Of a stretch of DNA of 64,000 nucleotides, positions 16,268-63,984 are shown piece after piece. Source of the DNA: a bacterium (GTDB lineage Bacteria; UBP6; UBA1177; G963667425); contig OY763407.1 of assembly GCA_963667425.1 (NCBI GenBank), positions 2,201,464 to 2,265,463 of the forward strand, written 5' to 3'. The first letter of the stretch is position 1. Each line of letters opens with the position of its first letter. The position numbers were made by a program, and so were the translations under genes. Under the pieces are notes generated by a model. It did not search any database and had not been told where the DNA came from. It saw only the letters and a program-made list of their open reading frames with translations.

Positions 16268-16268
16268 T

Positions 16269-23964: not shown

Positions 23965-23969
23965 AATAT

Positions 23970-27275: not shown

Positions 27276-27299
27276 GGTAACCTTTTTAGGATTGTAATA

Positions 27300-28637: not shown

Positions 28638-28831
28638 ACAATTGTTTAAAAGAACCGTGTCAAAAAAATGTTGATAAAAATATGAACATAAAAATCAACA
28701 ATGAATTAACATTAAAAAATTACCTATATATAATAAAAAACTTAACTTTAAACACTTTTAAACATATAAACACGAGTAATAATTATAAATATATAAATAT
28801 AAACTAATATAATTATAAAACAGGAGTAACT
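28638..28831. other. Putative replication origin (oriC)
   Basis: dnaA-dnaN gap with TGTTGATAA (one mismatch), three tandem degenerate boxes ending TAAACA, then a TAA-rich AT tract; nearby parS; apparent C-to-G skew change judged by eye. Confidence 0.6.
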
Positions 28832-30990: not shown

Positions 30991-31118
30991 TACATAATGG
31001 TATATGATGATTTGTAAAAAATATTTTAAGTTATAATTAATAATAATATTTTACAATTTTTATATGTATTTTAAGTTATTATTTTATATTTAATTAAAAA
31101 AATATAAAAAAAATTTTT

Positions 31119-31146
31119 TTGACAATTGAAAACCCGTTAATATACT
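31119..31146 (+). promoter_or_regulatory. Putative sigma70 promoter
   Basis: TTGACA-16 nt-TATACT. Confidence 0.55.
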
Positions 31147-31185
31147 CATATATGATATCTATTTTTTCTAAAAAAAGGGGGTTTT

Positions 31186-31785
31186 ATGGTTGTTTACGAT
31201 ATTACAGACATAAAAGATTCTTATTCATTTTTTATGGATAAGGTTAAACCTTATTATGCTAGTTATCCCAGCTACATACAGTGTAAAATAGACGAATTAA
31301 AGATAAGGTACGATAAACTTGCCAGTGTTGTAAAAAACATAGAGAGTAAAGTTGTTAATGTTAAATCTTCTGTTTCAGATAAGAAAATATGGGCAGTTGA
31401 TGTAAATACTGAAGTTGAAAAAATATATTCAATAATATCGGTAAGATATAGTGCTGAAGATAAGAAAAAAATATTTAAGTGCTATATTCCTGGTAGAACT
31501 TCAAATGTTTCAATACTTGTAAAACTTATGGAAAGGATAAAAGATTATTCTTTGGAAGATAAATATTCTGATATAACTAATTTTAAGCCTGTATTAGATT
31601 CTTTAATATCAAGAGGAAGAGAATTTTTGGATATTGAAGAATATGAAAATAATTCTTCTCCTAAGAAAAAAGTTGTTATAGCTAGACGATCTTGGGAAAG
31701 TCAGTTTAAAAAAGTCAAATATGTAATGAAAGCTGAATATTATGAAAATAAAGATTTAGACTGGAAATATTTTTTTAATGAGTAA
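31186..31785 (+). CDS. Hypothetical protein
   Basis: 199-aa ORF with AGGGGG RBS and its own putative promoter. Confidence 0.72.
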   Translation: MVVYDITDIKDSYSFFMDKVKPYYASYPSYIQCKIDELKIRYDKLASVVKNIESKVVNVKSSVSDKKIWAVDVNTEVEKIYSIISVRYSAEDKKKIFKCYIPGRTSNVSILVKLMERIKDYSLEDKYSDITNFKPVLDSLISRGREFLDIEEYENNSSPKKKVVIARRSWESQFKKVKYVMKAEYYENKDLDWKYFFNE

Positions 31786-32596
31786 TTTCTTTTTTATTAT
31801 CAGGATAAAATATTAAAATAATCCCAATAATCATAGAAAATACAGATATTATTTGAGATGTAGATAAGAAATTATCAAAAAACAATCCTCTACTGTCATT
31901 TCTGAAAAATTCTATTGTAAATCTAAATATGGCATAAAGAAAAAGCCATAAACCTAAAGGAGTTCCATTTTTTTTATATTTTTTTCTTACAAAGAAATAT
32001 AAAAATATAAAAATAATAAAATTAAAAATTACAGAATAAATCTGAGTTGGAATTACAGGAAATGGTGTATCTGAAATAGAGTTTATAATATTATTATTAA
32101 ATTGTTCTCTTGCTGCATCACTGTATGATGGAAATACAACAGATAATACTGAGTTTGATATTTTTCCAAAACAACATCCATTTAAAAAACAACCTATTCT
32201 TCCAATTGATATTCCAAGTGCTGCAGAATATGACATTGCATCAAGATACTTTATTACAGGTTCTTTTTTTATTGATAAATATATTATTGCTGAAAAAAAT
32301 GATAGTATAACACCTCCGTAAAAAGCAAGACCACCTTTCCATATATAAAGCATGGCTATTGGTTTTTGAAGATATATATCAAAAAATCCGTCAAATATTA
32401 TATGCTGTATTCTTGCTCCTATAAGACCGCCAATTACAGAAATTAAAAACAGATCAAAAATAACTTTTTTATTTTTAAGTCCTATTCTATTTGCTTCTCT
32501 AAGAAATATAAAAAAACCTACTATCATGGCTAAGGCTACCATAACATTAAAGCTTGAAATAGTTATATTTCCTAATCTTATCATTACAGGATACAT
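31775..32596 (-). CDS. lgt: Prolipoprotein diacylglyceryl transferase
   Basis: IGAR, GGLAFYGG, IGRIGCFLNGCCFG, PTQIY, RFTIEFFR, STSQIIS. Confidence 0.94.
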   Translation of the reverse strand: MYPVMIRLGNITISSFNVMVALAMIVGFFIFLREANRIGLKNKKVIFDLFLISVIGGLIGARIQHIIFDGFFDIYLQKPIAMLYIWKGGLAFYGGVILSFFSAIIYLSIKKEPVIKYLDAMSYSAALGISIGRIGCFLNGCCFGKISNSVLSVVFPSYSDAAREQFNNNIINSISDTPFPVIPTQIYSVIFNFIIFIFLYFFVRKKYKKNGTPLGLWLFLYAIFRFTIEFFRNDSRGLFFDNFLSTSQIISVFSMIIGIILIFYPDNKKEITH

Positions 32597-38469: not shown

Positions 38470-40325
38470 TGATAGAAAAAATGCACAAGGTTTTATTTGC
38501 GGGGCCTTTAGAAATACGCAGTGATTTTATTGTAAAGCTTCAGGAAAAAGGTGTTGTAGAGCCGGAATCTTATAAAGGAGAGCTTTTCAGTAAAAATGGA
38601 AAAGAGGTTGATACCTCATCTGCGGACCGTATTTTAGCTATTTTTAAAACTCTGAAAAAGTATAGATCTGAAGCTTTGGAAACAGATTTAAGAAAAGATG
38701 GAAAAATCTTAATACATGAAATAATAGAGCAGCTTCCATTAATTGAAGATGAACTTAGAGCGGCAAAAGAAAATGAACTTCAGCTTAATAAGACTAAATC
38801 AATACTGGAACCTCTTGGCGATTTTGATATAACAGATCTTAATGATATAGAAAAAAGAGGCAGTGTTTGTTTACAGTTCTGGGAAACATCTTTAAAGAAT
38901 TTTGAAAAAGCATCATTTGATGGAGTTTTTCCTCTGATTATAAAAGATGATGGAAAAAAGATTTATTTAATTACTGTTTCTAAAGAAAAAATTTCTTTGG
39001 AAGGATTAAGTGAAATCATAGTTAATGATGATATTAAGAGTATAGATAAAAAACTTGAGGAAACTAAAAATGAAAAAGAGAATATTCTTAAAAAAATATA
39101 TTCTTTTGTTCCTTATGACAGAGATATCTATGACCTTTATCTAAAAGAGCTTAATATTGTTAACTATGACAATGTAATATCTGCTTCAATAGAACCGCTG
39201 GATGGTAAAATTTTTGTTGTTCAAGGATGGTGTCCTGATAAGGAGCTTAAATCTATTTATGAAATGGTTAAGGAAATGCCTGTCACTGTTATGGAAATTG
39301 AACCTGAAAAAAATGACAGAATTCCTACTTTTATGAAAAATAAAGGACCGGCAGCAATAGGACAGGAACTTGTAGAATTTTATGATACTCCAAGTTACAC
39401 AGACTGGGATCCAAGCAGTATCGTGTTCTTTTCATTCCTTCTCTTTTTCTCAATGATAATGGGAGATGGCGGTTATGGACTTTTACTTTTTATAATAATG
39501 ATAGTTGTTAAATTAAAAGTTAAAAATCCAAAACCTTCTGGAAAAAGAATTATAAACATGGGTATGGCTTTAACTTTTGGAACTTTTGTTTATGGAATAA
39601 TTTCCGGAGGTTTTTTCGGACTTTCTCCAGATAACAAAATTTTTGGATGGCTGGTTAAGCTACAGCTTTTCAATGGAGGATGTACAAATCCGGATGGATC
39701 TATGAACTCAACAGATCTTAACAATATGATGAGAGCCGCAATTATTATTGGTATTGTTCATATTACACTTTCACTTATTGTTAAATCTGCAAAAAGTATT
39801 TTAGATGAAAAGGATTTTCTTGAACCATTAAGAAAGCTTGCATGGATTTTCGCTATGTGGCTTTTCTTTTTCTATTATGGAAAACCTTTTATGGGAATTT
39901 CGTCACAACTTCCAATTCAGCTTAATGCTATCTATGCGGCACTTGGAATAGTTGCTGTTATAAGTGGTATTAAAGCAGGTTCATTTAATCCTGTAAAAAT
40001 ACTTCTTTCAGCATTTCTGGGTGTTTATGATGGTGTTCAGTTTTTCAGTGACGTACTTAGTTATATAAGAATTTTTGCGCTTGGACTTTCAGGAGCACTG
40101 ATCGCCCAGACATTTAACTCTTTAGCATATGGTTTAATTGAAAGTGGTGGATTATTTATAGTTTTAGGAGCTTTTGTATTTATTGCAGGACACCTTCTTA
40201 ATATAGGACTTTGTTTGATGAGTGCTGTAATTCATGGACTTAGACTTAATGTTCTTGAATATTACAGGTGGAGTTTTGAAGGAGCCGGAAGAGCTTTTAA
40301 ACCATTTAAAAATTTAGTTAATTAA
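38469..40325 (+). CDS. atpI: V-type ATP synthase subunit I (a)
   Basis: QGWCP, GDGGYG, SDVLSYIRIFALGL, HGLRLNVLEY, FKPF. Confidence 0.95.
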   Translation: MIEKMHKVLFAGPLEIRSDFIVKLQEKGVVEPESYKGELFSKNGKEVDTSSADRILAIFKTLKKYRSEALETDLRKDGKILIHEIIEQLPLIEDELRAAKENELQLNKTKSILEPLGDFDITDLNDIEKRGSVCLQFWETSLKNFEKASFDGVFPLIIKDDGKKIYLITVSKEKISLEGLSEIIVNDDIKSIDKKLEETKNEKENILKKIYSFVPYDRDIYDLYLKELNIVNYDNVISASIEPLDGKIFVVQGWCPDKELKSIYEMVKEMPVTVMEIEPEKNDRIPTFMKNKGPAAIGQELVEFYDTPSYTDWDPSSIVFFSFLLFFSMIMGDGGYGLLLFIIMIVVKLKVKNPKPSGKRIINMGMALTFGTFVYGIISGGFFGLSPDNKIFGWLVKLQLFNGGCTNPDGSMNSTDLNNMMRAAIIIGIVHITLSLIVKSAKSILDEKDFLEPLRKLAWIFAMWLFFFYYGKPFMGISSQLPIQLNAIYAALGIVAVISGIKAGSFNPVKILLSAFLGVYDGVQFFSDVLSYIRIFALGLSGALIAQTFNSLAYGLIESGGLFIVLGAFVFIAGHLLNIGLCLMSAVIHGLRLNVLEYYRWSFEGAGRAFKPFKNLVN

Positions 40326-40354
40326 TTTTTAGTAACAAACTTAAGGAGATTATT

Positions 40355-40771
40355 ATGGATTTTGGAGTTTTTGGAGCTATTTTAGCACTCGGACTTGGAG
40401 CAATCGGAAGTTCTGTTGGTTGTGGTATTGCAGGAATGGCGGCACACGGTGCTATGTCAAAACAGGAAGAATCTCATGGTATTTTTATTGCTCTTTCAGC
40501 TATGCCTGCTTCTCAGACAATTTATGGCTTTGTTTTAATGATGATGCTTAAGGGAGCAGAAAACTTAAGCACAGTTTCAACCTTTGGAATAGGTCTTTCA
40601 GCTGGTCTTGGTCTTATGTTTAGCGCTATTTATCAGGGAAAAACATGTAGCTCAGCTATTTTAGGTGTTTCCAGAAAAGCTTCTATAACAGGAAAAAGTT
40701 TTATTGCACCTGGTATTGTTGAGTCTTTTGCTCTTTTTGCAATGGTTGGTGGTATAGTTCTCGCCAGCTAA
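40355..40771 (+). CDS. atpK: V-type ATP synthase subunit K (c), four TM
   Basis: PASQTIYG, SAIYQG and VESFALFA motifs. Confidence 0.94.
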   Translation: MDFGVFGAILALGLGAIGSSVGCGIAGMAAHGAMSKQEESHGIFIALSAMPASQTIYGFVLMMMLKGAENLSTVSTFGIGLSAGLGLMFSAIYQGKTCSSAILGVSRKASITGKSFIAPGIVESFALFAMVGGIVLAS

Positions 40772-48282: not shown

Positions 48283-50979
48283 ATGCTGAGTCGTCTAAAA
48301 ATTGGTCACAAAATAGTGATGTCTTTCTCAATATTGCTACTTTTAAGTGGTTTTATTGGGTTCACAGGTTATCGTGGTCTTAATAATATTTTTGAAAAGA
48401 CAGAAGAAGTTGGTCAGACAAGACTCCCGAGTATTTATGGGCTTCTAACTATCAGCAGTGCACAAAGGTCTGTTATTACTGGCGAAAGAGGACTTGTAAA
48501 CAGACGTTTTACTGGCAATGTTAGGACTGCACAGTATGATTATATTCAAAATTCTCTTCAGATGGCTAAAAAAGGATGGGATGTTTATGAGCCTCTTCCT
48601 CAAACAAAAGAAGAGGACAAAATATGGCTGGAGTTTAAATCTGCCTGGGATAGTTGGAGATCAGAATCGGATAAGGTTGTTTCTTTAAGTAAAAATAAAG
48701 ATGCAATGCTTACTCAGGGCTTAAGTTCTGAATCAGAGGATCTTTCTAAAATAGATACTGAAATTTTTAATCAATCTATGGTTTCAAGAACGGCTTATCT
48801 TAAAACCGAAGAGCTTTTGAATAAACTTGTTGAAATAAATAGAGAGCTGGCATTGAAAGATGTAAAGCTTGCAGGAGAAGCAGCTGATTCATCAACAAAG
48901 ACTTTGTTTGCTGTAATAATTTTTTCAATAATTGTAGGCATAATACTTTCTCTGATTTTCAATAAGAATATATCAAGTATAATTTCTTCACTTCTTTCAG
49001 AAGTAGAAAATATTAATGATTCAATTAGCAATGGTCTTCTGGATAGAAGAATAGATGAAGAGAAAATAAATTTTGAGTTCAGACCAATAGTAAAAACAAC
49101 AAATTCTCTCATAAATACTTTTGTTTCACCAATAAATGTGATGGCGGAATATGTAGACAGGATTTCAAAGGGAAATATTCCTCCTAAAATAACAGATAAT
49201 TATAAAGGAGATTTTGTAGAGGTAAAAAATAATCTTAATAACTGTATAGATATAATGAACTCTCTTATAAATGAAACCGAAACTCTTACTAAAGGGATAG
49301 AAAATGGAAAACTTGACATAAGAAGTGATGCTTCAAGATTTATGGGCAGCTGGGGTTCTTTAGTAAAAGGAATAAATGATCTTGTAGATACATTTATAGC
49401 GCCGATAAACACAATGGCGGAATATGTTGAAAAAATATCAAGAGGAGAAATTCCAGCTAAAATAAGAGATGAATATAAAGGTGATTTCAAAGAAGTAAAA
49501 GAAAATTTAAATAGCGCTATTGATGCACTTAATGGTCTTGTTGAAGTAAAAAAAGTGCTTGCTAAAATGGCAGGAAACGATTTTACGGATGAAGTAAAAG
49601 GAACATATCTTGGCGTTTATGAAGATGTAAAACAGTCTGTCAACCTTGTATCAGACAGACTCAGACATGTTCAGGATATAATTGTAAATATTTCTAATGG
49701 TGATACCGGTGATCTTGAAAAACTTAGGAAAGGTGGAAAACGCTCTGAAAAAGATAATTTAGTTCCATCCTTTATAATGATGCTTGAATCTCTTACAGCT
49801 CTCATAAAAGGAGTTGAAGGTTATGCTGAACTTTCTTCAAAGGGAGAACTTGAAAAAATAAATCTTGATGAAAGTAGAATGAAAGGTGCCTACAGAGAGA
49901 TTTTTGCCGGACTTAATAAGGCCGTTAAGTCTACAGTAGAACCTTTGATGGAAACGCTTTCTGTTCTTAAGAAAATGGAACGTGGAGATTTTACAGGAGA
50001 GATAACAGGGAAATATGATGGTTCTTTCCTTATGCTTAAAAATGCAGTAAATAATTCAATTTCATCAATAAGTACTTTGCTTGGAGAAGTTACAAATACG
50101 ACAGCACAAGTATCAAGCGGGTCACAGCAGGTCTCAAGTGCATCGCAGACACTTTCTCAGGGAGCAACAGAACAGGCCTCAAGCCTTGAAGAAATTTCGA
50201 GTTCAATGCAGGAAATAGCCGGTCAGACAGGTAGAAATGCGGAAAATGCAGTAGAAGCAAATGGTCTTGCCGTGGAAACTACGAGTGTTGCGGAAAAAGG
50301 TACAGGACAGATGAATCAGCTTTTAAATGCAATGTCTGAAATACAGAAATCAAGTAACGAAATATCAAAAATTATTAAAGTAATAGATGAAATAGCCTTT
50401 CAGACAAATCTTCTTGCACTGAATGCAGCTGTTGAAGCAGCCAGAGCTGGTATTCATGGTAAAGGCTTTGCTGTTGTTGCGGAAGAAGTAAGAAACCTTG
50501 CAGCTAGAAGTGCAAAAGCGGCGAAAGAGACAGGGGAAATGATAGAAAATGCTGTCCAGAAATCCAATGCCGGAGCAGAAATGTCAAAAGATACTGCCGC
50601 TATACTGAGTCAAATAGTTTCCAATATATCTAAAGTTTCTAACATTGTTGCAGAAATAGCCGCTGCATCAAATGAGCAGGCTCAGGGTGCATCACAGATA
50701 AATATTGGTCTCAGTCAGGTTGAGCAGGTTACACAGTCAAATACTGCAAGTGCAGAGCAGTGTGCCGCGGCTTCGGAAGAACTTAGTAGCCAGGCAGCAT
50801 ATCTTGAAAGTATGCTTAAGAAGTTTGTTCTTAAAGATGATATGAGATCATTTAAATCTCAAGGTAGTATTGGAATGAGAGCAAGACAATCTTCTGCTAT
50901 AGAAAACAAACCTTCAAGAAGAGTTCAGACACCTGAAGAAATAATTTCTCTTGATGATGATTCTTTCGGTAAATACTAA
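48283..50979 (+). CDS. Methyl-accepting chemotaxis protein with four-helix-bundle-type sensor and multiple HAMP-like domains
   Basis: TM, RLPSI...YEPLPQT.EE sensor, TM, repeated GxIP.KI...YKGDF units, [21 protein letters not shown]-terminal SFGKY. Confidence 0.95.
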
Positions 50980-51286: not shown

Positions 51287-54200
51287 ATGAAAAGGTTCCT
51301 GTTTTTTTCCTGTTTTATTTTTGCATGCAGTTTTTTGTATGCAGTTTTTTGTATGCAGGAAGTTTCACTTCAGCTATTTCAACAGATGAAATAACTGTTG
51401 AAAAGTTAAATGGCTCAGCATATTTTACAGGAGCAGTATTAACAGCAATACCAGGTTATCCTGCTCTCCCAGTAACTGAAATAAACTTTCTTCTGCCTGA
51501 TGAAGCAAATCTTTCAACAGTCACAGCATACCTTGAAAACGGTTACCAGGAAACCATTTTTCCTGAAGAATGGGATGTTGAACCAGCACCGCCTGATATT
51601 TGCGGGGAAGAGATGACACCATGCTGGCATTCATCCCTGCATATATCAGATAATAGAGATACAGATGTCTATTCAATGAATTCATATATAAACGGCAAAT
51701 ATGTAGATACAGTAACAACAGGAAAAACCAGCGGATATAAGTTTGTAAGAGTTAAAGTTCTTCTCTTTGACTATAATCCGGCTGCAAAAAAATTAAAAAA
51801 GCTTGAGAACGCCAGACTCACAGTAACATTTTCAGGAGGAGACAATGAAATAACAATACCCTCAAGACTTTCTCCAAACAAACTTCAGGCACTAGCAAAA
51901 CTGCCGGAAGATTTTATAAACTATGATGAAATTGACTTTATAAATAACAATGTTGCCTTTTCAGCAATAGCAGGCAATGATCAGAATAAATACTATATAA
52001 TAACAACAGATGCAATATACAGTTCATCAGTACAGATGAAAAGATTTATAGCATCCAAAATGGCAAGAGGCTTTGAAGTTCATCTGGTGACAGAAGAATA
52101 TTCCATAATTAATAATGGAAAGAAAATGGGACTTACAGGCTGGGCAGGAGAAGTAGGACTAACAGGATATGAAGCAGCAGAAAAGATAAGAAGTTATCTT
52201 GTATCAAGACAGAACAAGATAGATTACCTTCTTTTAATAGGAGATCCACATCCAGGAGAATGTACCGGTCAGGATGCAGATGGTGATTATCTTCCCGGAT
52301 ACCAGTGCAATGATGGCGGAGATGTTCCAATGAAATGGATAAGCACAACAGCATTATCATCATGGATCGATTATTGTCAAGACAAGCCTAAACCTCATGA
52401 TTATTATGATTGTGTAAACATTGATGATCATGCAAGCCCAAAAAGAGCCACACCTTCAGATTATTATTATGCAGATCTGGACTCGAACTGGGATCATGAT
52501 GGAGACAAACTGATTGGAAACGATGTTACAGTCTATTGTCATGATTCATCTGCAACATCAGCAGAAAACTGTACTGACTGGAAAACAACAAAACTTGATG
52601 GTGCAATTAAAAGGATGTCCGATTCATCATATATAAACAGAACAGCAGAAGTCATAGTTGGCAGAATACCGGTTTACAATAACAACATAGATGATCTGGA
52701 CAGCATACTCTTAAAAACAATAAAATATGAAAACACAACAAAAGAAGGTGCGCAGTGGAGAAAAAACATATTTCTTCCAATGTATCCTTCAAATGTTAGC
52801 ACACCTAACTGGGAACTTGGAGAAGCGATAGTAAATAATTTTCTTCCGTCAGACTTTGAATATTACCGGTTTTATATCAGCGAAATATACAATGATTTTA
52901 ACTATAATAAAATTGGAGCATATACAAATATAAAAGGAAACCAAGGAACATCGTACAGAGAAATAGATGGAGTCAATGATGAATGTTATTACACAGTGGA
53001 TGATTATGGGATCCCCAATAATATCAGATATAAAAGTCTTGGTAATTCAAAATATCAGAAATATATATGTAAGGAATATAAAACAAATATAGATAAAAAC
53101 AGAACATTAAGATTAGCCTACTGGGACAAAGAAGGAGGAGAAGTAACACTGACCAGTCAAAATATTCCGCTGATAGAAAGCTGTAGCGAAGGAGAAGAGC
53201 GGTATACTGTCTGTTACGATACAGCATATCATTATGAAGAACAGATGAAACTTCAGCTTCAGCAGTGTGATTCATCAGGCAATTGGAATGATATTGAAAA
53301 TTCATGCAAAAATTTTAATGAAGTAAAAAGAACCTATTTTTTCTGTGAATATAACAGTAACAAAGAAGCCACATTTAAACTGTATAAATTTAATTCGGGT
53401 GAATGGACAGGAGAAGGAAGCTGCGTAACAGATTTAGATTCTGATATACCGTATATGGCACCTTTTCATGTAAGCAAATACTACAGATTTGACCTTCTTG
53501 AACCGGAAGAAGAAGCAGATATTGATCCTCTTTTTGGTTCAGTACCGACAACGCCTTCATATAAAAACATGCTGGATGTATTCAACAATTCTAAACAATT
53601 CGGAATTGTAACATGGAAAACACATGGGAGAGAAAATTACTCCAGTGAGCTAATAATAAATAATGATATTTTAGCAAAGAACCATGGTCATTATATTAAT
53701 TTTGATAATGAACATCCATTTTTTACAGTACAAGTAAGCTGCCTGAATGCAAAACCGGAATATAACAGAAACGTAGCATATGCATTACTTTTAAATGGAG
53801 CTGTGGGAACAATTGCATCAACAAGAGAATCCGGCTATAACTCAAGTGAATTTGATGAAAAAACTGAGAAGTTTACAAACACAGATTTAGAAGGCAATAA
53901 TACAGGAAACAATGCTTCTTTGGGCTACTTTTTTACCCGAGAACTCACTGGAACAAGATTTAAAGAACCTCAGGATACAGGGCATGCTCTGTTTAACACA
54001 AAAGCTGATAATTATTCAAATATTAACAACAACAATCGTTACAATCTTTATGGAGACCCATCACTCAGCATCAACACCTACTATGATGAAAGAGATAGAG
54101 ATGATGATGGAATACGAGACAGTTTTGATACATGCCCTGAAATTCCAAATCCGGATCAGGCAGATATGGATGGAGACGGAGTCGGAGATGTCTGCGACAA

Positions 54201-56913
54201 CTGCATAAAGATACCCAACCCATACGAAGCAGCTTCATTTGCAGATGAGCTCATAAATGGAGAATGCGTAATAGATCATGATACAGATGGAAATTGTACA
54301 GAAGAAGGAGATGGCGGAGCATACCGCAACAAAGATACCCATAAACACGGTTATCCTGTCAACCCTGATCTTATCTATTTCGGTCCGTACATGTGGCAGC
54401 CAGATCACGATCTTGACGGCGAAGGCGATGCCTGTGACAAGGATTACAAATATGTACAAACAGCAAAAGAGGAAAAAAACAGCGTAACCGGAGGGGGCTG
54501 TAAATGGGAAGGTAAAATAGAATTCTGTAACGTAACAACCACATTAAATGATAAAATCGGCATAATAAACAATAAAACAGGTTCACAGAAAACAGTAACA
54601 GGAACAGTTGACAGCCGTTTCTGCTGGGTTGATGATTCAAATCTTAACAAATGGGGAACAGAAGGCTACTGTACAACAAATTTCGGTTCAGCAGGGCTCC
54701 CTCCCATATTTGGAGGCTTTGGTTACAGCCACGGTAGCGACCCACACCCTATGAGAGGTATTAAAATTGAATCGTGGAAAAAAATATCAACATCCAAAAT
54801 ATGTGACAGCACAGGAGAAACATACAGCAATGCTGAACCGCCGCAGAATAACAACAATCAGGAAACTATTACATGGGACTGGAAAGAAGATATAAAATGT
54901 GAATCTCTTGATAGTTATACTGCCAATATAACAAACTATCAGACAGTTACAGATAAAAAATATCTTAATACATTCTTTCACTACACAACATCAGCAGGAT
55001 TCAGAGGAACAGAGCTAAATGTATCCTACACAATAGGAACAGAAGCAACAAGTCCTGTTAATCCTAAATACTTTTACAACAAGGCAACATTTGCAAGAGC
55101 AAACAGATCACAGGCAACCCCTACATCAATAGGATACGGGGTAGTCGGCAGAAGATTCCCGAGAGGCTTTTTCTGGGAATATCTCTATCCATATCCTGAT
55201 TACGGTTTTGATAAAGATATGTGCCCGAACTGCGGACCTAGAGACAGGATAAGCAGAGATATTATGAATAGATGGAAAGAAGAACCTTTACATGAAGCAG
55301 TTTCAGTAGAAACCATAAGAATGGAGCCGGAAGGCGCCGTAATGGAAATAGGAGACAACCTTTATAAATTCAGCAGAGGAACAGAAAACTACTGGTACAT
55401 GTGGGGAAATGAAGAAAGCAGAAGAAGTGACTGGCAGCTTATGGCAGTAGTTTCAGCAGGAGCAGCAGAACCATATTCAGCAGCTAAAGTAGGAAACACT
55501 ACATATATAACCGAAGGAACAGGAGTCTACTATGTTGGAATATACAACATTCTTCAACAGGCATCAGCATTAAACAGCACAAGTGCGGAAAATCAGGCAA
55601 CAATAAACACAGCCAGACTCTACTATGCAGCTGAACTTCCATCAGTAAGAAAACCAAACCTTATAAACATAAACGACACACTCTATCTTCTTGGAAACGG
55701 CTCAAGCGTAATGGAACTCTACAAACTCTCATCAGAAAAAACATTTGAAAAAGTAAGCACCTTAAATGCGCCGGCAATAAGAGACAGAATAAACTACAAA
55801 GTAATAAATGGAGCGCTTTACATAGCAGGAGGCGGAAACTATACAAATGAAGAATATGGAATAAGCCCAAAAACAGATCTATGGCAGTACACAGAAGAAA
55901 GCGGATTTAATAAAATCACAGATTCACTACCAAAAGAAGGAATATTCAACCTCTTCATAACAGCCACAGCAGACAAAGCCATACTCTACACCAAACAGAT
56001 AAACGATGAAGGTAAAACCCTTAAAAGAGAAGTAGACCTTGAAACAGGAGAAATAACAACAACAGAAACAGCAGTAAAAGGCTGGACAAACAATATACTC
56101 TATAACGAAGGTTACTGCATATACGACACAGGAAGCAGAATATACCCCGGAATCCTTAAGGAAGGAAGCTGCACAAAACAGTCAGATTACAACTATGACA
56201 GCCACACATACTTTGACTATAAAAAGACAGTAGCAGGCTGGAACAACCATCTCTACCTTGGAGGACTCAGCGGAATAAGAGAAATAACAATAGAAGAAGA
56301 CGGAGACCTCAACAAAGAAAAACTCCACTGGTTAGGGAACATCAACAACATAGCAGTAAAAGACAACTACCTCTATGGAGCAGGAGGCAATAAAATAGAA
56401 ATCCTCAAAATAGAAAGTGATGGAAGCCTCAGCGGAAAGAACGCCCTTTCAACCAAAGACTGTGACAACATAAGAATACACGGAAGCTATTTAATAGCCG
56501 GAGAAAACAAAAAAGTTACAATATGGGACATAAGCACACTCGAAAACCCCAAAAAAGTAAAAACCATAAGTGTAGACTATCCTGTAAAAGATATAGAAAT
56601 CGGCGGAAACTATCTTTACATCTATCATGACAAGCTATTCAAAACAGGAAAGCTGGCACTTTACGACATAAGTGATATACTTAATCCGGTAAAGAAAGAT
56701 GAAGAAAAGAAAGAATGTAATGACGCAGAGCTTACAGTAAGCGGAGGCGAAGTATACATGGGCTGCAAGAACGGACAGTACAAAGCAGTAAACAGTAACG
56801 GCTCATTAAGCCTTAAGAAAATGAGCGGAGAAAAGAACTACATGAGAGAAGCCTACTACTACAATGGAATAATATATCAGGTATTTTCCGGCAAACTCCA
56901 TGAATCAAAATAA
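51287..56913 (+). CDS. Large C25 (gingipain-like) cysteine peptidase with propeptide, TSP3 repeats and C-terminal beta-propeller-like repeats; signal peptide frameshifted (intact ORF 51325-56913)
   Basis: PGYPALP propeptide, YYIITT, YLLLIGDP, PSDYYYADL, VGRIP, WKTHG and VSCLN candidate dyad, YNLYGDP; DRDDDGI..D.CP..NPDQ.D.DGDGVGDVCD repeats; LVIVD-like WDIS/YDISD. Confidence 0.85.
51325..51358 (+). repeat. 14-bp tandem duplication (ATGCAGTTTTTTGT x2 plus ATGCAG)
   Basis: Read directly: 51325-51338, 51339-51352, partial 51353-51358. Confidence 0.95.
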
Positions 56914-56930
56914 TTAATGTGTTTTATTGT

Positions 56931-56957
56931 GTAGCGACGCCCCTATGGGCGTCGTTT
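56931..56957 (+). repeat. GTAG-type REP-like palindrome, copy 1
   Basis: GTAGCGACGCCCCTATGGGCGTCGTTT; stem CGACGCCC/GGGCGTCG; identical to 60178-60204. Confidence 0.85.
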
Positions 56958-56968
56958 ATGAGGAAACG

Positions 56969-58591
56969 ATGAAAAGAACAATTCTTTTAACCTTTTTAAT
57001 ATTATTTGTTTTTTCAATAACAGGATGTGATAAAGATAAAGCAGAAACTGACGGAGATGTCATCACTGATGCTGACGTTATAACAGATGTTGACACCATT
57101 AAAGATGCAGATGCTTCAGTTCCCGATGAAGACACAGACATTCAACCGGATCTTGACACAGAAAAGCCTGACATAGATGACATATGTGCTCAACCAATAG
57201 ACTATTCTTTACTTCCATTTAAAGATGACAAAGGCAACATTCACTTCTGTAGAGAAGGATGTGACATTCCAACTGCAAACGACCCGCAATGCCTAAGCAA
57301 TCTCTGGAAAGAGGATAATGAATATTTCTGCAAAAACTATCCTGAATATGACTGCTGCAACTATCCATGTGATCTGAATAATTTAATTCCAACCTACAAA
57401 GGAGAAGGAACAAACTATCCAACACTTATGGAATGTGATATAGCACTTAATGCAAACAATCCTAATTTGTGGCAGACAGGCTACTACACATTTAAAAATT
57501 TTAACTTTCAGGATGGAAAGATTGGTTTTCCCATGTATAATGTTCAAAGCACATTTACAAGACATATAAACAGCGTAAAAGCATTTGAATATGATATTAA
57601 AACAAAAAAATACAGCGTAAAAAGCCTGACTGATGCCAGTTTACTTGCCTACAATAAAGGAAACTTCTTTACATACGTAACCACTAAAGATTCCTTATAC
57701 AGTACAATAGTCTATTACTCCAATGGAGTGCATAGAACAGTATATCCTAAAGCAGTAAGAAATATAGCATATACACCGGTAATAACAGATAAGTGGGCAT
57801 TTGCAAATATAAGAGAAAAAGAAGGTGAATCAGTCTACATGAAATATGCTCTTATCAAAGAATACAATGGAAACGCAAGTTATGAAAACATTGTATGGAA
57901 CTGGATAACCCTTTCTGAAGGAATAGCAAATGACCCCAACATAGTTGATGACAGACTTGTATTTTACGGAGACGGATTTAAAGGTTATATATGTGAGCTT
58001 GACAAAGAGCCTAAATCGCTTGATGAATGCAAAGTGATTAACAGAACCATTGATGGAAAAATGGAAGAACTTAGATATGCATGGATGGACAGTGAAAACA
58101 AAAACCTTATCTATTTTTCACCGGTAGAGATGAGAGATGGATTTATGAGGTTAGATACATCAAAAGAACCGTGGGAGTATAAAAAGTTTACAGTACAAAA
58201 TTTAATGGAAGACACTTATGATGTTGCTGTAACTTTTGTAAAAGGAAATTTATTATCATATATAAATATTTCATGGCCTGACGGAGACAGAGATAAACAA
58301 AAAAACAATCTTTGTATGTATAGACTTGATCAGGAAAAAAGCTACTGTTCACCAATAGAAGAAAGAACTACTGCCGCTTATACAGAATTTGACGAGCACT
58401 ATATAGCATGGCAGCTGCCCGGTAACCCAGAACTCCATTTAAGAGATATGGAATGTTACTGCGACCTTCACCCTGAAGTCTGCCCTTATGATGACTACAC
58501 CCCAAACACTGAATGTCCTAAAAACATAAAGACAGGCAAACATGAATGCACGGATGCTGATAATGAATCACCTGATGAAGATGCTGAATGA
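56969..58591 (+). CDS. Cys-rich lipoprotein, tandem paralogue 1
   Basis: MKRTILLTFLILFVFSITGC lipobox, acidic linker; GAGG RBS before ATG at 56969. Confidence 0.86.
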   Translation: MKRTILLTFLILFVFSITGCDKDKAETDGDVITDADVITDVDTIKDADASVPDEDTDIQPDLDTEKPDIDDICAQPIDYSLLPFKDDKGNIHFCREGCDIPTANDPQCLSNLWKEDNEYFCKNYPEYDCCNYPCDLNNLIPTYKGEGTNYPTLMECDIALNANNPNLWQTGYYTFKNFNFQDGKIGFPMYNVQSTFTRHINSVKAFEYDIKTKKYSVKSLTDASLLAYNKGNFFTYVTTKDSLYSTIVYYSNGVHRTVYPKAVRNIAYTPVITDKWAFANIREKEGESVYMKYALIKEYNGNASYENIVWNWITLSEGIANDPNIVDDRLVFYGDGFKGYICELDKEPKSLDECKVINRTIDGKMEELRYAWMDSENKNLIYFSPVEMRDGFMRLDTSKEPWEYKKFTVQNLMEDTYDVAVTFVKGNLLSYINISWPDGDRDKQKNNLCMYRLDQEKSYCSPIEERTTAAYTEFDEHYIAWQLPGNPELHLRDMECYCDLHPEVCPYDDYTPNTECPKNIKTGKHECTDADNESPDEDAE

Positions 58592-60159
58592 AAAGAACAA
58601 TTTTTTCAAGCTTTTTAATATTATTTGTTTTTTCAATAACAGGATGTGATGAAGATAAAGCAGAAACTGACGGAGATGTCATCACTGATGCTGACGTTAT
58701 AACAGATATTGACACAGCCCAGGATGCAGATGCTTCAGTTCCCGATGAAGACACAGACATTCAACCGGATCTTGACACAGAAAAGCCTGATGAAGACAAA
58801 TGTCCATCAATAGACACATATACACTTCCATTTAAAGATGACAAAGGCAACATTCACTTCTGTAGAGAAGGATGTGACATTCCAACTGCAAACGATCCGC
58901 AGTGCCTAAGCAATCTCTGGAAAGAAGATAATGAATATTTCTGCAAAAACTATCCTGAATATGACTGTTGCAACTATCCATGTGATATGGATAATTTACA
59001 GCCTGCATATAAAGAAAATGAGCCGGAAATTAATATCTGTGATACAGAAATAAATGCAATTAATCCTTATGGCTGGAATACAGGCTACTACACATTTAAA
59101 AACTTTAACTTTCAGGATGGAAAGATCGGTTTTCCAATGTATAATGTTCAAAGCACATTTACAAGACATATAAACAGCGTAAAAGCATTTGAATATGATA
59201 TTAAAACAAAAAAATACAGCGTAAAAAGCCTGACTGGCGGAGATATGCTTGCATACAATAACGGCAACTTTTTTACATATATAAAAATAAAAGATACAGT
59301 AAAACATCTTATAACCTACTATTCCAATGGAACATACAGAACAGTCTACCCAACAACTATTAGAAATATAGCATATACACCGGTAATAACAGATAAGTGG
59401 GCATTTGCCAATATAAGAGAAAAAGAAGGTGAATCAGTCTACATGAAATATGCTCTTATCAAAGAATACAATGGAAACGCAAGTTATGAAAACATTGTAT
59501 GGAACTGGATAACCCTTGCAGCAGGAATAGCCAACGACCCCAACATAGTTGATGACAGGCTTGTATTTTACGCTGATGGATTTAAAGGCTATATATGCGA
59601 GCTTGACAAAGAACCAAAGTCAATTGATGAATGCAAACTGATTAACAGAACCATTGATGGAAAAATGGAAGAGATAAGACAGTCATGGATGGACAGTGAA
59701 AACAAAAACCTGATATACTTTTCACCTGTAGATATGACAGATGGATTTATGAGATTAGATACATCAAAAGATCCTTGGGAGTATAAAAAGTTTACAGTAA
59801 CTAAAACTTATACAGACACCTATGATGTAGCTATCGCTCAAGTCAAAGGGAAATATATAGTTTACGAAAATATAATCTGGCCGAATGGAGATAGAGATGA
59901 ACAGGATAACATTGTCTGTCTTTACAGGATAGATCAGGAAAAAAGTTACTGCCCGGCAGATGGAGACAGAGCTTTTGGAGCATATGCAGAATTTGACGGA
60001 CACTACATAGCATGGCAGCTGCCAAGCAACCCTGAACTACATTTAAGAGATATGGAATGCTACTGTGACCATCACCCTGAAGTATGCCCTTATGATGATT
60101 ACACCCCAAACACTGAGTGCCCTAAAAACATAAAGACAGGTGAACATGAATGCAAATAA
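58588..60159 (+). CDS. Cys-rich lipoprotein, tandem paralogue 2
   Basis: Same lipobox; long identical blocks with paralogue 1; ATGA overlap. Confidence 0.88.
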   Translation: MKRTIFSSFLILFVFSITGCDEDKAETDGDVITDADVITDIDTAQDADASVPDEDTDIQPDLDTEKPDEDKCPSIDTYTLPFKDDKGNIHFCREGCDIPTANDPQCLSNLWKEDNEYFCKNYPEYDCCNYPCDMDNLQPAYKENEPEINICDTEINAINPYGWNTGYYTFKNFNFQDGKIGFPMYNVQSTFTRHINSVKAFEYDIKTKKYSVKSLTGGDMLAYNNGNFFTYIKIKDTVKHLITYYSNGTYRTVYPTTIRNIAYTPVITDKWAFANIREKEGESVYMKYALIKEYNGNASYENIVWNWITLAAGIANDPNIVDDRLVFYADGFKGYICELDKEPKSIDECKLINRTIDGKMEEIRQSWMDSENKNLIYFSPVDMTDGFMRLDTSKDPWEYKKFTVTKTYTDTYDVAIAQVKGKYIVYENIIWPNGDRDEQDNIVCLYRIDQEKSYCPADGDRAFGAYAEFDGHYIAWQLPSNPELHLRDMECYCDHHPEVCPYDDYTPNTECPKNIKTGEHECK

Positions 60160-60177
60160 ATTATTGGTTTTTTATTG

Positions 60178-60204
60178 GTAGCGACGCCCCTATGGGCGTC
60201 GTTT
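60178..60204 (+). repeat. GTAG-type REP-like palindrome, copy 2
   Basis: Identical 27-mer to 56931-56957, here followed by GCTAC. Confidence 0.85.
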
Positions 60205-60267
60205 GCTACGCCGTTTGAGGGATTACAAATGAAAAAGATATTTAACTTTTTTGAAGTTTTTCATAAA

Positions 60268-60894
60268 TCATTTTATAAAAAGATTTAGTTCCAATGCTAT
60301 AATATTTGAAACTGCATGAAATAAGACAGCATAAAAAATATTGCTCCTACTTTTTTCTGTAAACCATCCAAATAAAAGTGAAGGAAAGAAAGTACTCATT
60401 CTTAAAGGATTTAAAAACGAAATAGCATGAGCTGTTCCAAAAATAAAAGAGGTCATCAAATTCTTTTTTGTAAGAATAAAGAAAACTTTTTTATTGTGTT
60501 TTTTAAAAATAGTTTCCTGTAACCATCCTCTAAAAAAAAGCTCTTCAGGAAGAGCAACAACAATACCAAGAAGAAGACCATAAAAAAAGTTTGAAACAAC
60601 GGCTGAAATTTCAGGTAAGTGAAAATGTGCTTTTTCAAATAATAAAAACCATCCAAAAAAAAGCGGAGGATATAAGATAGCAGTTGCAGCTGAGATTAAT
60701 AAAAATGGTTTTATCCCTTCCAAGTTTAATTTGAGAAACTCTGCCCATCTAAATTTTTTGTCAAGAATATGTGGCAGAGCAAGGAGTATCAATGGGAAAA
60801 ACACACTTCTCCATTTAAAAAAAGTAAGATTCATAATCAATGCTGTTGTTGTAAGTACGGCGAAAGCGATAAAAGCTTTTGTATAATTTTTCAT
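60268..60894 (-). CDS. CPBP (Abi/CAAX) family intramembrane glutamic endopeptidase, myxosortase-like
   Basis: PEELFFRGWLQ (EExxxR), FGTAH, TFFPSLLFGW, HAVSN; multiple TM segments. Confidence 0.88.
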   Translation of the reverse strand: MKNYTKAFIAFAVLTTTALIMNLTFFKWRSVFFPLILLALPHILDKKFRWAEFLKLNLEGIKPFLLISAATAILYPPLFFGWFLLFEKAHFHLPEISAVVSNFFYGLLLGIVVALPEELFFRGWLQETIFKKHNKKVFFILTKKNLMTSFIFGTAHAISFLNPLRMSTFFPSLLFGWFTEKSRSNIFYAVLFHAVSNIIALELNLFIK

Positions 60895-61092
60895 TTCTTC
60901 TCCAAAAACAGAGGTGAGATTTTATATTAAAACTTTTTTAATCGCAATTTATTGAAAATAAACAATGTTTTGGGCATGTAATTTTTAAACAATAAAAATA
61001 TTCTATGATTTTAACATGTTGACTTTATTAAATAAAAAAATAAGGTATGTTAGTTGCTTGCTTTTTGTCCGACTTTTTGTGGGAGGGGGACA

Positions 61093-63396
61093 ATGTTTTA
61101 TTTAAAAAGAGTTTTTGTTTTTTTGTTTCTTTTTCTTGTTTTCTTTTCAGGATGTGATGACAGTAGTTCAAGAAAACATGATAGCGATGTTCTTTTAGAT
61201 GAAGATTCAGCCGATACTGATGTTTATGTAGATGAAGAAAATAATGATTCAGAGGGTGTCGATTCAGATTTGGACACTTCTCTTTTTCCTGATGAATCTT
61301 TTTTATCTCCATCAAAAGGGCTTACTTTAAAAATGAAAGGAGTTATTTCTTCACAAAGTGTTCAAAACGGAAGCATAGATGTTCTTGATGTAATATACAC
61401 TGATGAAAATGGCAATAATCTTTATTTAAATGATAAAGCTTCAGCAAATATTGCAGCTCAGTCTGGTTCTGTTGTGGTAACATTTTCAGAAGCTGTAATG
61501 ACAGATAATCGTTCTCACTTTATCTATTTTTCTTTTCCTAAATCTTATCTCGATTCTGATGATATAGGCAAAATAGCAGAAAGAACAGATGTTGATCCGG
61601 TTGTTTATCAATATGAATATAAAGAGGGTGGCAAAATAGTTATTCAATGCCCTGTAGCTGTCAAAGATAATTCGAAATCGCTTTTAAGTTTTGTTGATTC
61701 TGAAGATCAGACATTTATTGCCGGAGACACAATGTATGCAATGATGAATGTGCCTCTTATTAAAGGCAAAACAGCACTGAGAGAATTCTATGGTGAAAAT
61801 AGTTATGATAACATGTGTTACTGTTATGACTACATTGAAGAAGATGGCAGTTATAAACCCAGAAGCTGTGAAACAGGAGATCTTTATCTGAAACCTGAAA
61901 AACCTTATGCTCTTTTTCCCAAAGACAGATCTTTAAATTCTGCTTTACAGGGAACTGTAGAGCTTGCTTTTTCAGGAGGTGAAGATCCTCAGGGGTTTGA
62001 TGTAACTTATTCTATTTATGCTGGAAAAGATCCTTTAAATCTTAATGCTGTTGCTGAAAATGTTACATCAAACAAGCTTTCTTTTCCGGTAGAAGCCGGC
62101 ATGAATTATTTTTGGAAAATAAAAGCGGAAAATATTAAAGGTCTTTATTCTGAAAGTGAAATTTATTCTTTTACCACAAAAGATTCTTCAGAATATGCAG
62201 ATCTTTTAATACTTGTAAACAAAGATAAGGAAACGGCTCTTTCAGATGTTTTAAATGAGTATGTTCAGCAGCTTCAGAATGAAGGATATAAAGCAGAGTT
62301 AAAATATCTTATTTTTGATGAAGAAATGCCTCTTACAGTTGAAGATCTTAAAAATATTATAAAAACTTACTATCAGGAAAAGTTTATAAGAGGAACACTA
62401 CTGCTTGGAAATTTTCCTGCTGCATGGTATGAAATGGATATGACGGTAACTTCTTCAACTAGTGAACCTTATCAGATGTATGAGACATTTCCGACAGATA
62501 TCTACTTGTCTGATTTTACTGCTGAGTGGTTTGATGAAAGAGATAAAGATAACAATTCAGTTGCTAATGGAATATATGATAGACATACAGCACTGAACAC
62601 CAAGGTTTTTGTTGCAAGAATTCTTGGGGAGAGTGATAAAATAGCTAATTATTTTAATAAAGTAAAAAAATATAAAACAGAAGGTCACCTGATATCACCA
62701 TCTCTTTTTCTCTTTATTGATGAAGACTGGCAGTCAGGAGCCGGTTCTACCTGGTGGCTGGAAAATGTTTATGAAAAAACAACTGAATATGCAACACCTG
62801 AAACAACAACGCAGGATAAATATCTTGATTTTATGACTGGTAGCGGGGCGGAATTTATCTATCAATGGATACATTCAGATCCTGGAATGCTCTACTTTAA
62901 TACAAATTACGGTGGAGATTACCTGACACGTGAAACCATAGAAAATTCAGGTGTAAAAGGTAGTTTCTATAATCTTTTTGATTGTTCTGCCGTTAGATTT
63001 ACAGAAGAAAATCTTGGTGATATGTATCTAAAAACAGAGTATGGACTTGCTGTTATCGGTTCTTCAAAAACCGGTGGCATGTATAATCCAAAAATATTTC
63101 ATACTGATCTGTCAAATAGCCTGCCTTGGGGCATAGCTTTTAGAGATTGGTATAATGAAGAGGGAGTAAAAGATGATTCATGGTTTCTTGGTTTTAATAT
63201 AATGGGAGATCCATTAATAAAATTAAATAGTGAAAACAGTACTGTTTACAAAAGATCTGTTTCTACAAAAGAATTTAATGTATGGGAAATCAGTGAATTA
63301 AAAAAGAAAATGATAACTCAGCAAAAGCTTAGAAATAACGGTGGCTTTGATATTTATAAAAAGCAAAATCCTTCTTTTTTCAAAATTCTGCCATAA
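61093..63396 (+). CDS. Lipoprotein with FN3-like domain and C25-like cysteine peptidase domain
   Basis: FFSGC lipobox after GGGAGGGG RBS; TYSIY...YFWKIKAEN FN3-like; LLLGNFP, PTDIYLSD, VARI, WIHS and FDCS candidate dyad, IMGDP. Confidence 0.78.
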   Translation: MFYLKRVFVFLFLFLVFFSGCDDSSSRKHDSDVLLDEDSADTDVYVDEENNDSEGVDSDLDTSLFPDESFLSPSKGLTLKMKGVISSQSVQNGSIDVLDVIYTDENGNNLYLNDKASANIAAQSGSVVVTFSEAVMTDNRSHFIYFSFPKSYLDSDDIGKIAERTDVDPVVYQYEYKEGGKIVIQCPVAVKDNSKSLLSFVDSEDQTFIAGDTMYAMMNVPLIKGKTALREFYGENSYDNMCYCYDYIEEDGSYKPRSCETGDLYLKPEKPYALFPKDRSLNSALQGTVELAFSGGEDPQGFDVTYSIYAGKDPLNLNAVAENVTSNKLSFPVEAGMNYFWKIKAENIKGLYSESEIYSFTTKDSSEYADLLILVNKDKETALSDVLNEYVQQLQNEGYKAELKYLIFDEEMPLTVEDLKNIIKTYYQEKFIRGTLLLGNFPAAWYEMDMTVTSSTSEPYQMYETFPTDIYLSDFTAEWFDERDKDNNSVANGIYDRHTALNTKVFVARILGESDKIANYFNKVKKYKTEGHLISPSLFLFIDEDWQSGAGSTWWLENVYEKTTEYATPETTTQDKYLDFMTGSGAEFIYQWIHSDPGMLYFNTNYGGDYLTRETIENSGVKGSFYNLFDCSAVRFTEENLGDMYLKTEYGLAVIGSSKTGGMYNPKIFHTDLSNSLPWGIAFRDWYNEEGVKDDSWFLGFNIMGDPLIKLNSENSTVYKRSVSTKEFNVWEISELKKKMITQQKLRNNGGFDIYKKQNPSFFKILP

Positions 63397-63456
63397 TATT
63401 TTCTTTAAAAACTTAATGCTCTGTGTAGACTTTTAATGTTTTAAAAGGAGGTCTAT

Positions 63457-63984
63457 ATGAAAAAAAATCTTTTATTTCTGTTGTTATCAGCAGCGATACT
63501 GTTTTCGTGTTCAACACCAGAGCTTAAGGAAAACGATGCATCTTCTCTACTTAAGGAAAGAACACAGAAAGAAGGTGGAAGATCTGTCTCTTTTTATCTC
63601 GGTTCAGTTACAGATCCGAATTACAGAGACGTGTATAAGAAAATTTCTACCGGAAAATATCTTGAGTATAAAGAAAATGTTTACATAAAAGAAGCGGGAA
63701 AATCATTTCCTTTGTTTAGTGCCACAGATCTTGGAAAGAAGCTCTTTACCTGTAAAAACAATAGATGTAGTATTGAGATTTGCAGAAGAGAGTTTGGAAA
63801 AATCGAATCAATTAATGTTTTTGGTGGAAAGAATGCAGAAGTGAAATACACTGTTGATTCAGTTTGTGAAGGAGAGCTCTATTCTCTTTTTAAACCTCTT
63901 GCAGATAAACAGTATATTTCTTCGAAAGAAGAAAATCTTTCAGCTTCATTTGTTCTAGAAAAAGATAAATGGATTTTAAAATAA
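63457..63984 (+). CDS. Lipoprotein of unknown function
   Basis: MKKNLLFLLLSAAILFSC lipobox; AGGAGG RBS. Confidence 0.8.
   Translation: MKKNLLFLLLSAAILFSCSTPELKENDASSLLKERTQKEGGRSVSFYLGSVTDPNYRDVYKKISTGKYLEYKENVYIKEAGKSFPLFSATDLGKKLFTCKNNRCSIEICRREFGKIESINVFGGKNAEVKYTVDSVCEGELYSLFKPLADKQYISSKEENLSASFVLEKDKWILK

Follow-up and report, generated by a model that had tools for sequence, protein, structure and literature searches.

A recurrent cassette of secreted peptidases with exchangeable catalytic heads and propeller lipoproteins in an uncultured UBP6 bacterium, with a possible role in surface attachment

The window examined here is a stretch of 64,000 nucleotides from contig OY763407.1, the single contig of a 2.95 Mb, 99% complete genome of the lineage UBP6. 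Between 51.3 and 64.0 kb of the window, the open reading frame (ORF) list and the translations confirmed all six genes that a preliminary description of this DNA had placed there: a large modular peptidase of family C25, two paralogous lipoproteins (lipA and lipB, members of what we call the LIP family), a CPBP/Rce1-type intramembrane protease, a second C25-like protein of 780 amino acids (aa) (p780), and a further lipoprotein of 175 aa (Table 1). These 12.7 kb had been viewed as one surface protease "island" but are four side-by-side, independent units rather than a single system. Unit 1 would be an operon for a Sec-exported modular C25 peptidase and two translationally coupled lipoproteins, with CPBP, p780 and the 175-aa orphan lipoprotein as units 2, 3 and 4, respectively; CPBP is convergent with the operon and is thus a separate transcription unit. 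The main result concerns unit 1. That is, the non-catalytic C-terminal part of its peptidase, referred to below as the chassis, and the LIP lipoproteins belong to a cassette that recurs in this genome and in related genomes with catalytic heads of different peptidase families, and LIP may serve to hold the peptidase at the cell surface.

Table 1. Features between 51.3 and 64.0 kb of the window (positions are those of the window; aa, amino acids; nt, nucleotides)
Feature	Position	Strand	Details
ATG start with GGAGA 8 nt upstream, and 14-bp tandem duplication	51287..51352	+	duplicated units 51325-51338 and 51339-51352
Large modular C25 peptidase ORF	51325..56913	+	1862 aa as it stands
C25 propeptide-like region	51427..51924	+	aa 35-200; Pfam Propeptide_C25 17.5 bits, below cut-off 22
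C25 catalytic domain	51991..54069	+	aa 223-915; ~320 aa of Cys-containing inserts; PF01364 in two stretches
Thrombospondin type 3 (TSP3; calcium-binding) repeats	54073..54447	+	aa 917-1041; PF02412
Middle domain	54619..55146	+	aa 1099-1274; GYSHGSDP...WDW(R/K)xD...YARSxR
C-terminal beta-propeller region	55609..56910	+	aa 1429-1862; AlphaFold2 (AF2) model, Foldseek
lipA, LIP family	56969..58591	+	Met15 of the listed ORF as likely start; lipobox ITGC
lipB, LIP family	58588..60159	+	start overlaps lipA stop by 4 nt; lipobox ITGC
CPBP/Rce1-type glutamic intramembrane protease, myxosortase-like	60268..60894	-	208 aa; Rce1-like, 55 bits
p780, predicted N-terminally lipidated divergent C25-like peptidase	61093..63396	+	780 aa; likely start 61093; lipobox FSGC
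p780 C25-like domain	~62185-63396	+	His607 nt 62872; Cys644 nt 62983
175-aa orphan lipoprotein	63457..63984	+	lipobox LFSC

The large peptidase is proposed to run from a signal peptide through a C25 propeptide and the C25 domain to a calcium-binding TSP3 hinge, a middle domain and one or more beta-propellers. On its match to the Pfam profile PF01364 (Peptidase_C25), which scored 100.2 bits vs. a cut-off of 23 in a scan restricted to the first 1000 aa (E 1.9e-28), the protein is a member of family C25; a search of the genome with the same profile matched aa 223-537 and 715-915 with 65.9 and 41 bits. When the whole 1862-aa protein was submitted to Pfam hmmscan, the C25 domain was missed and only TSP3 and a weak LVIVD match were reported, which argues for scanning long, compositionally biased proteins in pieces; hmmscan was also silent on C25 in the first 1000 aa of a 66% identical paralog encoded elsewhere in the genome (paralog A, below). 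His767 (THG, nt 53623-53625) and Cys806 (SC, nt 53740-53742), which we take to be the catalytic dyad, both fall in the second of the stretches matched by Pfam, and paralogs A and B have them too. The C25 region measures 693 aa with 15 Cys (the Pfam profile has 374 positions) vs. 452 aa with 6 Cys in paralog B, and hence the Cys-containing inserts are real. The TSP3 repeats score 38.3 bits with PF02412 (cut-off 25) and match chains of COMP/thrombospondin at E 1e-16, and the middle domain that follows has no family match in Pfam or other databases. The AF2 model of the last 823 residues has a pLDDT of 74 overall, and mostly 80-93 over the last ~430 residues, which are all-beta; Foldseek relates this chassis model to DDB1/SF3b130-type multi-propeller proteins, and weak LVIVD and Beta_propel Pfam matches fall in the propeller region. 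Of the architecture previously described for this protein, the C25 domain, Cys-rich inserts, TSP3 repeats and propeller stand, the propeptide is only weakly matched (E 7e-4 for Propeptide_C25 on paralog B), and the length of roughly 1870 aa reads through a frame break.

This break lies in the signal peptide. The frame from the ATG at 51287 encodes a signal-peptide start like those of paralogs A and B, where the signal peptide is unbroken (MK(K/R)LWLF...LLYAGSFTT), and ends after 35 codons. A tandem duplication of a 14-bp unit has thrown it out of register with the peptidase ORF, which opens only at an internal ATG lacking an upstream ribosome-binding site. In read-derived contigs from two runs of one sample the sequence of the duplication is identical (0 differences; depth 31 and 16), these runs possibly representing the sample behind the genome assembly and contigs concealing rare variants; two other runs, X1 and X2, contain only 0.05 of the sampled words. 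The duplication is real in the sampled population. It may be phase-variable or fixed, with the contigs of the two runs fitting either, and since it breaks the signal peptide, the window copy probably fails to be exported or has been turned off. The duplicated stretch has, in addition, the score of a terminator-like hairpin with a T run behind it.

The two lipoproteins next to the peptidase gene are ~530 aa each and 81% identical, in agreement with their earlier description as Cys-rich paralogs. Their layout comprises a lipobox, an acidic tether of ~55 aa, a Cys-rich N-terminal cap, a 7-bladed propeller and an RDMECYC...CPY end, and the family alignment contains 23 invariant columns, 11 of them Cys, with the lipobox Cys nearly invariant. 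The lipoboxes of lipA, lipB, p780 and the 175-aa protein follow hydrophobic N-termini; lipoboxes and signal peptides were read by pattern throughout. LIP matches no Pfam or NCBIfam family. In its AF2 model (pLDDT 80, pTM 0.80), residues ~148-505 form the propeller (VIA Z ~20; ~280 residues aligned at 3.5 Å), whose top structural neighbors include propellers of S9 prolyl oligopeptidase and tricorn/trilobed protease types (7c72, Z 20.3; 1ve6, Z 19.6; 2gop, Z 18.9; 1n6d, Z 18.7), tied with WD40 proteins. The protein atlas gave leads that were all below 0.9 (DUF5050, PD40-type propellers), and homology between LIP and the chassis was considered and rejected (hhalign probability 0.7%). The dN/dS values of LIP paralogs (0.16-0.33; chassis 0.34-0.46) represent purifying selection and hence functional genes; the same values give no sign of diversifying selection on these lipoproteins, which had been called variable.

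A blastp search against all ORFs of the genome returned five chassis paralogs (A-E), sharing 31-72% identity over the C-terminal ~900 residues, and each of them is followed on the same strand by 1-2 LIP genes. The catalytic heads on these six chassis are C25 in three cases (the window gene, A and B, the head of A being assigned by its 66% identity, with Pfam silent), Peptidase_C10 in one (C) and Trypsin_2/S1 in two (D and E). A hidden Markov model (HMM) of the middle domain picks out exactly 9 ORFs in the whole genome, each with 1-3 LIP genes behind it. Six of these nine cassettes carry the full TSP3/middle-domain/beta-propeller chassis, and the other three encode proteins of a second type that share the middle domain alone (hhalign probability 80%). 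This domain is the most strongly conserved part of the 26 aligned family members, with 5 of the 13 invariant columns of alignment A3 (W145, W147, S184, F211 and R222). The big gene and the first LIP gene are separated by gaps of 4-59 nt, successive LIP genes abut or overlap by 4 nt, and 14 of the 18 LIP ORFs of the genome lie within cassettes, the remaining 4 being solo and one of these a fragment. The big proteins have a cleavable signal peptide without a lipobox, and LIP has the lipobox and the long acidic tether. A 298-aa transposase gene is present in identical copies at genome positions 998095-998991, 1313568-1314464, 1503929-1504825 and 2182749-2183645, adjoining or inside four cassettes; the transposase copies truncate D and E, both trypsin-headed, at the N-terminus and interrupt one of the middle-domain-only cassettes.

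The distribution of the two components among relatives was assessed in 35 genomes of the same order and 5 more distant ones. LIP is present in 34 of the former (2-27 matches each) and in 0 of the latter, and the chassis is found in 25 of the 40 relatives at E <= 1e-10, with LIP present in 25/25 of these. Among 71 LIP-centered loci from public genomes a chassis gene stands directly before 21 of the 59 evaluable LIP runs, some rumen genomes having the gene order LIP-LIP-chassis instead, and in chassis-centered loci LIP follows 13 of the 23 evaluable chassis genes, a biased sample that consists of the best 30 matches and partly shares its genomes with the LIP-centered set. That is, the pairing of the C-terminal region of the protease with this lipoprotein family, a neighborhood check proposed in the preliminary description, recurs both in this genome and in relatives, and so the concern raised there that these genes might never co-occur elsewhere does not hold. 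Of 22 chassis proteins from relatives, all have TSP3 repeats, two have a C25 head, two a papain-type C1 head and one an M12B head, and 17 have heads that were unrecognised at E <= 0.001; all heads that could be recognised, in this genome or in relatives, are peptidases. The same LIP family therefore follows C25, C10 and S1 heads, and C1 and M12B heads in relatives, indicating that LIP tracks the chassis and not the protease. The chassis-plus-LIP cassette and its two conserved parts are without a family name and, in the genomes searched, restricted to one uncultured order, and a literature search found no description joining gingipain, thrombospondin type 3 and beta-propeller. Word-based homolog searches are nearly blind for these families and returned 20 matches for LIP (11 from this genome), 2 for p780 and 4 for the middle domain (all from this genome). 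The relatives come from rumen, gut, digesters and sediment, and UBP6 members have been reported as amino-acid degraders in digesters (PMC7382037).

The chassis proteins of relatives end in (E/D)(E/D)DGW(F/L/I), often after a CGNG...CNSTC Cys-rich repeat (e.g., loci L040, L096, L100, L109, L111 and L117). This tail is confined to the chassis family in the loci examined, is found on 0 ORFs of the present genome, and is not clearly related to whether LIP is present.

C25 peptidases of the gingipain type are the classic cargo of the type IX secretion system (T9SS), and gingipains are held at the cell by the T9SS C-terminal domain (CTD) and the A-LPS anchor. The large protein shares with RgpB and Kgp of Porphyromonas gingivalis (MEROPS C25) a propeptide, a C25 domain with a His/Cys dyad and non-catalytic C-terminal domains, but has no T9SS CTD, has ~320 aa of extra inserts, and carries TSP3 repeats, the middle domain and propellers at its C-terminus, the C-terminal part of gingipains consisting of Ig-like and haemagglutinin domains. 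Consistent with what the preliminary description had noted, the T9SS tail models (Por_Secre_tail/TIGR04183) matched none of the island proteins, and hmmscan is able to see such tails, since the Pfam model found one on 1 of 22 foreign p780 homologs. The recommended check of the genome for T9SS and type II secretion (T2SS) gave no match to Por_Secre_tail or SprA (TIGR04189), both searches being made without a positive control and PorV, PorU and GldKLMN not being searched, and found two secretin genes. As far as these searches reach, they support the earlier inference of a display arrangement other than T9SS. The window also encodes a TonB-dependent receptor/TonB/ExbB-ExbD/DUF3450 cluster (8511-18084, - strand), which confirms a diderm envelope; passage of the peptidase across the outer membrane is presumed here.

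In this cassette family the chassis and the LIP genes remain associated, and it is the catalytic head that varies from one peptidase family to another. LIP, held on the membrane by its lipid and long tether, would bind the chassis and thereby keep the secreted peptidase at the cell surface; that is, it would do the job that the T9SS C-terminal domain and the A-LPS anchor do for gingipains. We favor the middle domain as the LIP-binding part because it is the only part common to all nine cassettes. The cell would thereby display a battery of surface proteases with which to feed on protein. We hold this reading tentatively, giving LIP as a lipid-anchored holder somewhat less than an even chance, as both the binding and the surface location are predictions from gene order and protein features. 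The propeller in S9 and tricorn-type proteases gates access of the substrate, and propellers of these types are among the closest structural neighbors of LIP; LIP, however, is a polypeptide of its own, lipid-anchored and capped by a Cys-rich region, and no sequence relationship to them was found. A functional likeness, under the proposed reading, is offered by dentilisin of Treponema denticola (PrtP-PrcA-PrcB), whose accessory lipoproteins, encoded in the same operon, are reported to be needed to hold and assemble the surface protease (PMC8167434, PMC11006804), both cases thus combining a surface protease with same-operon lipoproteins. Dentilisin differs in that it is an S8 subtilase, its accessory proteins are unrelated to LIP, and it has neither a TSP3/propeller chassis nor swapped heads.

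Several observations weigh against LIP as a holder. No chassis gene stands upstream of 38 of the 59 LIP runs, 9 same-order genomes carry LIP without a chassis match at E <= 1e-10, and 10 of the 23 chassis genes of relatives are followed by unrelated genes; outside this genome, chassis and LIP are thus not always paired. Within this genome, whole-cassette duplication can explain why chassis and LIP identities vary together, and the two parts differ in dS. Further, Foldseek and VIA gave only generic neighbors and no functional one for the LIP and chassis propellers, 0 RNA runs were found to contain the stretch, and the window copy of the peptidase is itself frame-broken. Alternatively, it is possible, if on the unlikely side, that LIP are independent surface or periplasmic proteins binding peptides or polymers, co-transcribed with the peptidases for protein foraging without forming a stable complex. 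This alternative stays serious because LIP is often solo in relatives, where it is a large family present in almost every same-order genome, with or without an adjacent chassis, and it agrees with the four solo LIP of this genome and with the fold, a generic ligand-binding propeller. It accounts poorly for the pairing of all nine middle-domain proteins with LIP here despite their differing heads, for the tight or overlapping spacing of the genes, and for the presence of LIP in every chassis-bearing relative.

Partner genes beside protease genes are a known theme (e.g., staphostatin and Spi-type inhibitors next to cysteine proteases), and LIP genes are immediately downstream and translationally coupled, as would be expected if LIP were a chaperone, a maturation factor or an inhibitor that shields the envelope during export. 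We give such a role little probability. LIP follows cysteine (C25, C10, C1), serine (S1) and metallopeptidase (M12B) heads, it is ~530 aa long and present in 1-4 copies per cassette, unlike small head-specific inhibitors, and it shows no homology to the chassis by hhalign. The earlier suggestion that these lipoproteins inhibit the C25 protease or give it target specificity is not supported, given the same range of heads. Since that range spans three catalytic mechanisms, it weakens an immunity reading as well, in which the cassettes would be polymorphic antagonism modules with the variable head as weapon and the lipoprotein as immunity protein. Multiple copies, heads swapped on a constant scaffold and insertion sequence (IS) elements beside several cassettes would all suit such modules; yet an immunity protein should track the toxic head and LIP tracks the scaffold, all recognised heads are ordinary peptidase families, and the variable part is N-terminal with a classical propeptide, an arrangement that, to our knowledge, known polymorphic toxins do not resemble. 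We therefore regard antagonism as very unlikely, and continue with LIP as a putative holder of the peptidase.

Least probable is one integrated display island in which CPBP sorts or processes both C25 proteins and the lipoproteins, as adjacency here and the myxosortase-like character of CPBP (MrtP 92, Mrt_core 86-88 bits) might suggest, given that Cys-containing C-terminal tails are absent from all island proteins, that CPBP is encoded on the other strand, that it is present in 35/35 same-order genomes and beside LIP in only 1 of 19 loci and at none of the p780 loci, and that plausible clients, with 21 short and 5 long Cys tails, are encoded elsewhere in the genome.

CPBP, correctly recognised in the preliminary description, is the only such gene in the genome, and its best NCBIfam matches are myxosortases, each below its curated cut-off: Mrt_core 86.2/87.7 bits (cut-off 100), MrtP 91.8 (250), MrtC 86 (195), MrtS 67 (130) and MrtJ 64 (75). 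Its translation contains PEELFFR, FGTAH and HAVSN, which match what we take to be the catalytic motifs of the family (EExxxR, FxxxH and HxxxN). The gene is single-copy in all 35 same-order genomes (38-47% identity), and its neighbors vary among them. We read CPBP as the lineage's housekeeping myxosortase-type protease, and the view that it forms one system with the second C25 protein is not supported.

Two sets of proteins in the genome have tails that may be relevant to CPBP. Five carry a GC(S)CST motif, a spacer, a membrane helix and an R/K tail. In addition, 21 of 2223 ORFs of at least 150 aa end in an acidic/Ser linker, G-C-(G/S-C)-S/T, 3-7 mostly hydrophobic residues and the stop, without a helix (e.g., genome positions 1142869-1149144, 220530-226259, 38833-40377, 770734-772245 and 1601006-1603393), vs. 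0-2 matches (mean 0.25) in shifted controls (n=20), and all 21 start signal-peptide-like. The cargo of Cys tails includes three other C25, two S8, two S1 and one S15 peptidase, GH18, amidase_3, a phosphoesterase, and cadherin/MBG/laminin-G adhesin-like giants; NCBIfam CTERM models matched 0 of 14 Cys tails at cut-off. The same helix-less tail is found on 12 ORFs in 1.1 Mb of relatives' loci (L044, L051, L055, L061, L065, L070, L084, L092, L094, L102 and L142). MYXO-CTERM, JDVT-CTERM and Synerg-CTERM signals have been described to pair with the myxosortases MrtX, MrtC, MrtP, MrtJ and MrtS (Haft, bioRxiv 10.1101/2023.06.07.544157; mBio 2025, PMC11980579). The present case shares with these systems the match of CPBP to the myxosortase core and the five proteins with a Cys motif, helix and basic tail, and differs in that CPBP scores below all cut-offs and that in most candidate clients (21) the Cys motif is followed by just 3-7 residues, without a helix. 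Judging by co-occurrence alone, the clients of CPBP are likely the 21 proteins with the GC(GC)S-hydrophobic tail together with the five with full Cys/helix/basic tails, and CPBP is the obvious candidate processing enzyme for the helix-less tag.

The second C25-like protein, p780, was not matched directly by Pfam even at E <= 10, and its assignment comes from profile methods. Among 22 aligned homologs of its C-terminal domain, 9 match PF01364 (best E 1.6e-10); hhalign against the Pfam-positive C25 proteins of the genome gave a probability of 97.6% (E 3.9e-12, 321 columns), and the best PDB sequence matches were gingipain R at E 0.28. His607 and Cys644, positions His230 and Cys267 in alignment A2, are shared by all 22 sequences and line up with the corresponding His and Cys regions in the C25 set. 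From these profile comparisons and the lipobox, p780 is a predicted second, divergent C25-like peptidase anchored at its N-terminus. The preliminary description had this protein as a lipid-anchored FN3-C25 fusion; the lipobox and the C25-like character hold, and FN3 found no Pfam support, aa ~280-380 matching instead tandemly repeated modules of ~95 aa in other proteins. Strong matches to p780 (E <= 1e-76) are found in 13 same-order genomes and one genome of the same phylum, and the last ~400 residues place it in a large family, with 1627 representatives at E <= 0.001. In relatives p780 is unlinked to the cassette or to CPBP, the latter being present at 0 of 7 ortholog loci. The further lipoprotein of 175 aa is present as described, and has no Pfam or NCBIfam family match and no paralog in the genome, and is absent beside p780 orthologs.

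Taken together, the genome encodes eight C25-like proteins with three predicted types of attachment. Two of them (p780 and a 603-aa protein) would be anchored through an N-terminal lipid, three carry a short Cys tail, and three have a TSP3/propeller chassis with partner lipoproteins. The genome shows no sign of T9SS in the searches above, yet would attach C25-like proteins in three other ways. A bolder possibility is that chassis and LIP represent an undescribed surface display for diderms, with LIP capturing, and possibly escorting, any head across the outer membrane as the counterpart of the T9SS CTD, beside a second undescribed route composed of the helix-less GC(GC)S tail and the myxosortase-like protease; we consider this rather improbable. 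With heads from at least five peptidase families, the chassis is a natural plug-in scaffold for surface proteolysis, and the cassette offers a handle on the feeding of these likely amino-acid-fermenting organisms. If LIP does hold the enzyme, it would represent a new anchoring principle for bacterial surface display.

Finally, a few observations concern the setting of the locus. Promoter and terminator predictions were in the range expected by chance (43 vs. 48.8 expected, and 10 vs. 6.4, respectively). Two similar methyl-accepting chemotaxis genes, with nearly alike C-terminal ends, bracket the stretch, at 48283-50979 of the window and at genome positions 2265741-2268485, beyond the window's end. 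The chromosomal origin region occupies 16000-32000 of the window, where the minimum of the cumulative GC skew and a switch in gene strand fall at ~18-19 kb, followed by mnmE-mnmG-rsmG and dnaA-dnaN-recF, with G+C down to 21% at 30-32 kb. Bacterial TSP3 repeats are also found in a 570-aa protein encoded at 5151-6863 of the window (- strand).

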